From sequence record ON782582.1: DNA of 64,000 nt, one strand, 5' to 3'. Position 1 is the first letter of the stretch. Each line of letters opens with the position of its first letter. Source of the DNA: Escherichia phage ECP52. Below the pieces are notes generated by a model, which worked only from the letters and a program-made list of their open reading frames with translations, searched no databases and was not told where the DNA came from. Both the position numbers and the translations under genes were made by a program. Below are positions 52,067-52,840 of this stretch, piece after piece.

Positions 52067-52840
52067 TTAAATCCAGGAACCGTAGATCGTGCCTGTTGCA
52101 CCCCATGATGGTGAAGAACCAAATACCGCTCTACCTGGAGCACCACCGCCGGATCTAGATAAGTGATTACCCCATCCATCTCCACCCCGGCCTCCAGCAT
52201 CACCGCCATTGCCTCCGCCGAATTGGGAAGTGTAACCGGCACCGCCCGGGGCGTCATAACTAGCATTACCACCCGGCCAATTAACGCCGCCTCCGCCGAT
52301 GCCAAATGGTCTACCACCACCGCCACCTGCTGTAGCATTTGGCGCCCAGCTATTCTGTAATGACACTGCACCACCACCGCCGCCGCCTGATGCAATAACG
52401 CCATAGTTCCAAATACGAAGTCTTCCGCCGATATCATTTTGGATTACATCGCCGCCATTTGTGCCTGGGTTTCCGTTTACAGTACCGTTACCACCTCGTC
52501 CCCACATATGAACTCCACCATGAATATTCAAAGTAACATATTCATTTGGAGTATCGCCATACATAAAGAATAAAGGAACATCTTTAGAATATGATACTAA
52601 ATCTCCAGTGATATTAAACACTATAGGTGCACTACCTGCCTCAAAACATCTATCTCGGAACCATTGACCATTGAAGTTATGGTCCGCTCCAAGGGTGTGA
52701 ATTACTTCAACAGATCGACCTATCATATTACTCATCCAAAACGGAATTCCCATTCTCAATCTCTGCGCGGCACCACCCATCCAAGGGTCTCCAGTTTGTA
52801 CCCTCGCAGACCATCCTACCCACGGTCCTTCAACTGCCAT
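52067..52840 (-). CDS. 38: long tail fibre tip adhesin gp38, glycine-rich T2-type (257 aa)
   Basis: GGAGG RBS then ATG 52840; conserved N-terminal domain then multiple oligo-Gly tracts. Confidence 0.8.

Follow-up and report, generated by a model that had tools for sequence, protein, structure and literature searches.

The long-tail-fibre locus of Escherichia phage ECP52 (GenBank ON782582.1) contains a gene 38 whose glycine-rich product, gp38, is named an assembly catalyst in the database. The question raised by this locus is whether gp38 is such a catalyst or an adhesin that recognizes the host receptor and, in the latter case, which parts of the fibre tip set the host range and which surface molecule is bound. 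The initial annotation had proposed a glycine-rich adhesin of the T2 type, with the segments between its oligoglycine tracts acting as receptor-recognition loops and the C-terminus of gp37 as a second determinant of host range. In this study, the locus was analyzed in the window, i.e. the whole stretch of 64,000 nucleotides, to which all positions below refer.

Gene 38 and the family of its product

The gene and the signals in front of it are as follows.

52067-52840, minus strand: gene 38, encoding a T2-type receptor-recognizing adhesin of 257 amino acids plus the stop codon (Pfam, PDB matches, shared start).
52846-52850, minus strand: Shine-Dalgarno sequence GGAGG, 5 nt 5' of the gene 38 start (read directly; kept in RB69, RB51, FL31 and AR1).
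52852-52867, no strand assigned: hairpin GGGGC-UUCG-GCCCC between the gene 37 stop codon and the Shine-Dalgarno sequence of gene 38.

The protein, which runs from MAVEGPW to YGSWI, starts at the ATG at 52840, a start common to the annotated genes of RB69, RB51, FL31, T2 and T6. A longer open reading frame of 267 amino acids (52870 to 52067) was rejected as gene 38, since the relatives all start at the MAV codon. Its ten additional codons come from an extra minus-strand ATG at 52868-52870, within the 37/38 hairpin region, which arises from a spacer change specific to the window (TAAAATG here versus TAATAAG in RB69, RB51, FL31 and AR1); an ORF caller could choose this spurious ATG as the start of gene 38.

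The Pfam scan (E <= 0.01) returned two domains alone, Gp38_N (PF21721) at residues 1-40 (E 6e-20; 71.3 bits versus a cut-off of 25) and GP38 (PF05268, 'phage tail fibre adhesin') at residues 45-257 (E 4e-83; 279 bits versus a cut-off of 25), and found no chaperone domain of the Caudo_TAP or Tfa type in gp38. Neither gp38 nor gp37 matched NCBIfam. Among PDB entries, phmmer matched gp38 to the receptor-binding domain of PP01 gp38 (9V85; E 7e-75) and, over the full length including the N-terminal attachment domain (residues 1-257 aligned to 1-249), to the S16 gp38 chain of a gp37-gp38 complex at the fibre tip (6F45_D; E 2e-47), with which it shares 45% identity. An AF2 model computed from 76 homologues (mean pLDDT 91.1, pTM 0.81) was compared with the PDB using Foldseek, which gave 9V85 at a TM score of 0.92 (on the target) and an rmsd of 1.7 A, with 65% identity over 216 columns, and 6F45_D at a TMq of 0.83; the search of the PDB returned no fold other than gp38 adhesins, the next match having E > 5. 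The fold of gp38, as modelled, is a beta-helix and a polyglycine-II sandwich with distal loops A-E, the same architecture as that of PP01 gp38. Owing to these Pfam domains and the match to the PP01 and S16 adhesins in both sequence and fold, gp38 is a T2-type adhesin and not a T4-type chaperone, as the initial annotation had proposed for its family.

A role as assembly chaperone only, in which gp38 would be absent from virions, as in T4, and the gp37 tip itself would bind the receptor, is what the database name implies. GenBank UTQ80371.1 from ECP52, which has the same amino-acid sequence as the gp38 described here with no difference at the protein level, is entered as 'distal long tail fiber assembly catalyst'; the same name is given to T2-type gp38 in the identical or near-identical records of RB69, T6 and JS10, and gene 38 occupies the same position as gene 38 of T4. 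However, these labels are a legacy transfer of the T4 name, and the RB69 record itself calls the gp38 of the T2 subfamily unrelated and an adhesin. The domains returned and the fold shared with the S16 and PP01 adhesins also stand against this role, as does gp37, which carries an S74 intramolecular chaperone of its own and has no receptor-binding tip like that of T4. A chaperone-only gp38 is therefore considered highly improbable, and 'assembly catalyst' is a mislabel that describes the unrelated gp38 of T4. The gene could be re-annotated from 'assembly catalyst' to 'receptor-recognizing adhesin'.

Glycine-rich motifs and the loops between them

The stretch 52105-52495, to which the initial annotation had assigned the repeated oligoglycine tracts, is coding on the minus strand and corresponds to residues 116-246 of the 257 residues of gp38. 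All four motifs that had been quoted are present in it: GGGGGG (residues 152-157; 52370-52387), GGGGGR (residues 172-177; 52310-52327), GIGGGG (residues 180-185; 52286-52303) and GGGNGG (residues 208-213; 52202-52219). The range holds the coding sequence of the glycine-rich stretch but misses the start of the first motif (52484-52501), which begins 6 nt outside it, and the list of motifs left out a fifth one at residues 231-241. Glycine makes up 35.9% of the residues encoded by 52105-52495 versus 13% of residues 1-115 of gp38 and 6.6% in the 45 open reading frames of at least 150 amino acids in the window (binomial P about 1e-22 for the stretch), and the gp38 frame has the highest glycine density in the window, with 49 glycines in its best 131-residue span and 23 in the next frame. 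The G+C content is 55.8% in the glycine-rich region versus 35.1% window-wide, which is due to the GGN codons.

The domains, glycine-rich motifs (GRMs) and hypervariable segments (HVSs) of gp38 are listed below in the order of the protein; the loops were carried over from the PP01 crystal structure (PMC12892980) via the PP01-like AR1 sequence.

52721-52840, minus strand: N-terminal attachment domain, residues 1-40 with W7, W20 and W35 (PF21721; docking to the gp37 tip predicted).
52502-52720, minus strand: beta-helix domain, residues 41-113 (AF2 strands 46-113, pLDDT 87-97; aligns to the beta-helix of 9V85 and 6F45).
52118-52501, minus strand: specificity domain, residues 114-241, glycine motifs alternating with hypervariable loops in a modelled polyglycine-II sandwich (entropy profile, Foldseek).
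52484-52501, minus strand: GRM1, GRGGNG, residues 114-119 (the same in T2, T6, Ox2, M1, AR1, RB69 and RB51).
52460-52483, minus strand: HVS1 or loop A, TVNGNPGT, residues 120-127 (PP01 loop A, W119-I124; 11-38% identity to T2, T6, Ox2, M1, AR1 and S16).
52370-52390, minus strand: GRM2, SGGGGGG, residues 151-157 (G152-G157 invariant or nearly so).
52328-52369, minus strand: HVS2 or loop B, residues 158-171 (PP01 loop B; 43% identity to T2, 6-29% to the other references).
52292-52327, minus strand: GRM3, residues 172-183 (83-92% identity to all references).
52274-52291, minus strand: loop C, GGVNWP, residues 184-189 (PP01 loop C; 0-43% identity to the references).
52220-52243, minus strand: loop D, GAGYTSQF, residues 200-207 (PP01 loop D; 38% identity to T2, 0-22% to the others).
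52184-52219, minus strand: GRM4, residues 208-219 (G210, G212, G213, G216 and G219 invariant or nearly so).
52151-52183, minus strand: HVS4 or loop E, residues 220-230 (PP01 loop E; 45% identity to T2, GRGWGKNVYTS, and 0-36% to the others).
52118-52150, minus strand: GRM5, residues 231-241 (G233, G236, A238, V239 and G241 nearly invariant).
52070-52117, minus strand: conserved C-terminal strands closing the beta-helix, residues 242-257 (AF2 strands 245-248 and 251-253; P244, W246, G250, Y253 and G254 nearly invariant).

By the PP01 definition, the cores of the loops are residues 120-125 (TVNGNP) for A, 161-170 for B, 184-188 (GGVNW) for C, 203-207 (YTSQF) for D and 221-229 (DGWGNHLSR) for E.

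Five glycine-rich motifs in a fixed order, separated by hypervariable segments, are thus present in gp38, and a layout of five GRMs and four HVSs has been described for this protein (Trojet et al., 2011; PMC3157838). In an alignment of 120 sequences, comprising 111 database homologues and nine reference adhesins that include the gp38 of the window, the glycine motifs have an entropy of about zero, and variability along the protein is highest in the segments that separate them. Among the 76 sequences of the second alignment, the invariant columns are almost all glycine (G114, G116, G117, G152-154, G156, G175-176, G199 and G212-213), and in the attachment domain W7 and W20 are nearly invariant, at 90% or more of the 76 homologues. 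The segments between the tracts had been proposed to be the receptor-recognition loops, which agrees with their hypervariability among the 120 homologues and their coincidence with PP01 loops A-E. In PP01, loops D and E are cross-linked to OmpC and loop E governs specificity (PMC12892980). The glycine tracts do separate short segments of other composition, as had been stated, but they would not be mere spacers, judging from the solved homologues, in which the glycine motifs form a lattice of polyglycine-II helices (the 'PGII sandwich') that bears the loops (PMC12892980).

Two further open reading frames cover the glycine-rich stretch in other frames, at 52060-52437 (minus strand, 125 amino acids) and 52163-52360 (plus strand, 65 amino acids); most likely, both are artefacts of stop-poor, GGN-rich sequence. 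Their overlap with the stretch and its glycine content of 36% could be taken to mean that the stretch is a disordered spacer of low complexity or that one of these frames is the real gene. Against this, glycine is conserved column by column in the 120 homologues, the confident AF2 model (apart from loop B) superposes on crystal structures, the substitutions at residues 101-257 relative to RB69 and RB51 leave the amino-acid sequence of the gp38 frame unchanged, and overlapping frames are expected from GGN-rich sequence. The probability of a spacer or of a gene in another frame is accordingly put at next to nothing. The pLDDT of the model is 89-97 across the glycine-rich region apart from loop B, whose residues 161-170 form the block of lowest confidence (pLDDT 60), which fits a loop that is exposed and flexible.

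The alignment with gp38 of T2, T6 and Ox2 that had been suggested as a check was carried out, with Ox2 (X05675) and M1 as the OmpA-type reference adhesins; the loops differ and the glycine motifs are kept. T2 gp38 has the same layout of GRMs and HVSs and is the closest of the classical references in loops B (AASLKNSYPTNGSC), D and E (38-45% identity), whereas its loop C is unrelated; its N-terminal and beta-helix domains are 37-40% identical. The loops of the present gp38 are unrelated to those of T6 (receptor Tsx), Ox2 and M1 (OmpA), and AR1/PP01 and S16 (OmpC). PP01, which binds OmpC via loops D and E, differs in loop sequence (0-43% identity, with AR1 as the stand-in for PP01), and S16, the receptor of which is Salmonella OmpC, has shorter loops B and E. 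For this allele, the data did not support the idea that the DNA of the GRMs acts as a linker for recombination with distant alleles; within or beside GRMs, exact matches of 14 nt or more in the alignment numbered one with T2, one with AR1, up to three with Ox2 and none with T6 or S16.

The gp37 partner and the arrangement of the locus

The fibre subunit that would carry gp38 is encoded upstream of it on the same strand.

52872-56186, minus strand: gene 37, distal long-tail-fibre subunit of 1104 amino acids (Pfam Gp34_trimer and Peptidase_S74; collinear with gp37 of RB69, RB51 and FL31).
52875-53207, minus strand: residues 994-1104 of gp37, C-terminal intramolecular chaperone of 111 amino acids (Peptidase_S74 at residues 994-1053, E 1e-12).

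The gp37 motif DVYVR^SDIRVKK aligns with DLNVS^SDRRIKK of S16 and with DVYIR^SD of T2, T6 and fPS-90. The S16 sequence is an experimentally known cleavage site, and DVYIR^SD has also been published (PMC7917993). By analogy with S16 and T2, gp37 is predicted to be auto-cleaved after R993. The last 111 residues would be cut off after trimerization, so that the C-terminus of gp37 as encoded is not expected to touch the receptor. The earlier proposal that this C-terminus helps to determine host range is therefore misleading, as residues 994-1104 are the S74 chaperone behind DVYVR^SD. The new tip of gp37 left by cleavage would instead be a docking platform for the N-domain of gp38 and not a receptor-binding surface. 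In RB69 and RB51, gp38 is likewise paired with a gp37 of this type, which bears an S74 chaperone.

The distal shaft of gp37 (residues 651-993; 53208-54236) reaches at most 87% identity to a gp37 among 50,697 phage records, and residues 700-900 are 52-82% identical to RB69 and RB51. No other part of the fibre locus is as diverged as this shaft, which lies next to a gp38 that is 99.6% identical to that of RB69. Given this divergence, it is possible that the shaft or tip of gp37 also contributes to binding.

[quoted passage not shown] The gp37 chains would trimerize with the aid of their own C-terminal S74 chaperone, which would then cleave itself off after R993. The N-domain of gp38 (residues 1-40), with W7, W20 and W35 as tryptophan prongs, would cap the exposed gp37 tip. 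Residues 114-241 would form a lattice of polyglycine-II helices from the five GRMs, with loops A-E projecting from its distal face, and these loops would contact the extracellular loops of an outer-membrane protein, giving a reversible, host-specific first step of adsorption. Work by Riede and coworkers in 1987 reportedly placed gp38 of T2, K3 and Ox2 at the fibre tip of the virion and found it to be needed for adsorption. The same has been found for T6, whose gene 38 amber mutants lose adsorption although their fibres look normal (PMC3157838), and for S16 according to Dunne et al., as this work is cited in PMC12892980. A location of gp38 at the fibre tip of the virion is likewise expected here.

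The gene order is the canonical T-even order 36-37-38-t, with the T holin gene at 51365-52021 downstream of gene 38. One candidate promoter precedes the fibre genes.

56875-56882, minus strand: T4-type late-promoter motif TATAAATA upstream of gene 36 (position only).

This motif is likely to be the promoter of the late transcript of genes 36-37-38. Genes 34, 36 and t are each preceded by a copy on the same strand, and the motif is not over-represented in the window (five found versus 9.7 expected), so that the late-promoter assignments follow from position alone. The copy at 52040-52047 (minus strand) lies in the 45-nt gap between the stop codon of gene 38 and the start of the holin gene t, which suggests that gene t has its own late promoter.

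The RNA of the 37/38 hairpin folds with -17.6 kcal/mol (z = -2.4), and a stem at this position is kept in T2, T6 and S16 with different sequences. There were no Rfam matches in 51000-57000. On the plus strand, the hairpin precedes a T-rich run and has the score of an intrinsic-terminator-like site; it might also stop antisense read-through from early genes.

The allele and its predicted receptor

The gp38 described here is already known, being an ordinary T2-type adhesin with the specificity domain of characterized alleles. It has the same length, 257 residues, as gp38 of RB69 and RB51, with 99.6% identity to the former, where the sole difference is D80 here and N in RB69, and 97.7% identity to the latter. 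Residues 101-257, which include all GRMs and loops, are 100% identical to RB69 and RB51/RB68. The N-domain is 100% identical to that of RB69, 85% to that of RB51 and 48-51% to those of T6, S16 and fPS-90. Over residues 114-246, gp38 of FL31 has 99% identity, with one residue different in the specificity domain (I181L), and gp38 of fPS-90 has 98% identity, with two.

At the DNA level, gene 38 as a whole has 29 substitutions relative to RB69 and 28 relative to RB51. Within residues 101-257, there are seven synonymous and no non-synonymous differences from RB51 (dN = 0, dS 0.06), and 14 synonymous differences from RB69 plus one two-base switch from one Ser codon to another (dS 0.12). Since these residues are unchanged relative to RB69 and RB51 at a dS of about 0.06-0.15, the loop set is under strong purifying selection.

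The receptors reported for these alleles bear on the prediction. RB69 and RB51 need OmpF together with FhuA and a complete LPS core (Trojet et al., 2011; PMC3157838); FL31 falls in an OmpF/TolC-dependent group (PMC12032242); and on Yersinia pseudotuberculosis fPS-90 relies on OmpF plus the LPS core, as found with ompF complementation (PMC7917993). Because the loop set is the same as that of RB69 and RB51 and near-identical to those of FL31 and fPS-90, OmpF is probably the primary receptor of this gp38, and a dependence on an intact LPS core besides OmpF is predicted. Furthermore, T2, the loops B, D and E of which are nearest to those here, is an OmpF/FadL phage.

It could be, however, that gp38 is an adhesin with another primary receptor, such as FhuA, TolC, FadL, another porin or the LPS core, and that the dependence on OmpF is indirect. 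The finding of Trojet et al. that RB69 and RB51 also need FhuA and the LPS core points this way, as does the loss of only about one log by FL31 on ompF and tolC mutants, a loss that was under the threshold of that study itself (PMC12032242). In addition, LPS defects alter the composition of outer-membrane proteins, and LPS mutations shift porin levels indirectly (PMC3157838). Set against this are three independent studies on identical or nearly identical specificity domains that all implicate OmpF, including the ompF complementation with fPS-90, and the similarity of three loops (B, D and E) to their counterparts in T2, a phage that itself uses OmpF. A primary receptor other than OmpF is thus judged unlikely, though it retains some weight. 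The predicted receptor of OmpF with the LPS core would aid the choice of phages for cocktails and help to foresee resistance through ompF or waa mutations, and the coordinates of loops A-E are places to engineer for a change of host range.

A more speculative and rather doubtful extension is that one monomeric adhesin reads more than one surface molecule, with the T2-like loops B, D and E binding OmpF and the allele-specific loops A and C explaining why RB69 and RB51 have been reported to depend on FhuA, TolC or the LPS core. The five-loop set would then have been frozen as one cassette, with all amino acids unchanged across 157 codons at a dS of 0.06-0.15, and passed between Tequatrovirus and Mosigvirus via breakpoints in the beta-helix.

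The genome around the fibre genes has its own affinities. The flank from t to gene 52 (47000-52046) is 96% identical to T2 and the interval 47568-57371 is 94% identical to RB51, whereas the flanks show only 70-76% identity to RB69 and FL31, both of which are Mosigvirus. By sequence, the window is assigned to Tequatrovirus. An assignment to Mosigvirus from RB69 as the best gp38 match would be wrong, the flanks being T2/RB51-like. The region 47000-57500 is a mosaic in which an N-domain of gp38 identical to that of RB69 is found in a T2/RB51-like Tequatrovirus genome. The reverse mosaic is seen in fPS-90, which has a T6-like N-domain (54% nucleotide identity) and a C-domain that is 85-100% identical in nucleotides by segment; the comparison with fPS-90 gives a sharp breakpoint in the beta-helix domain, at about residues 84-99 of gp38, which is the single clear one. 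Modular exchange has already been described for gp38 (PMC3157838).

The comparison with RB69 also contains two serine codons, 85 (52584-52586) and 242 (52113-52115), that belong to different codon families in the two phages with Ser kept. Two adjacent bases differ in each (positions 253-254 and 724-725 of the coding sequence), and it is mainly these switches that the Nei-Gojobori count against RB69 registers as apparent 'non-synonymous' steps.
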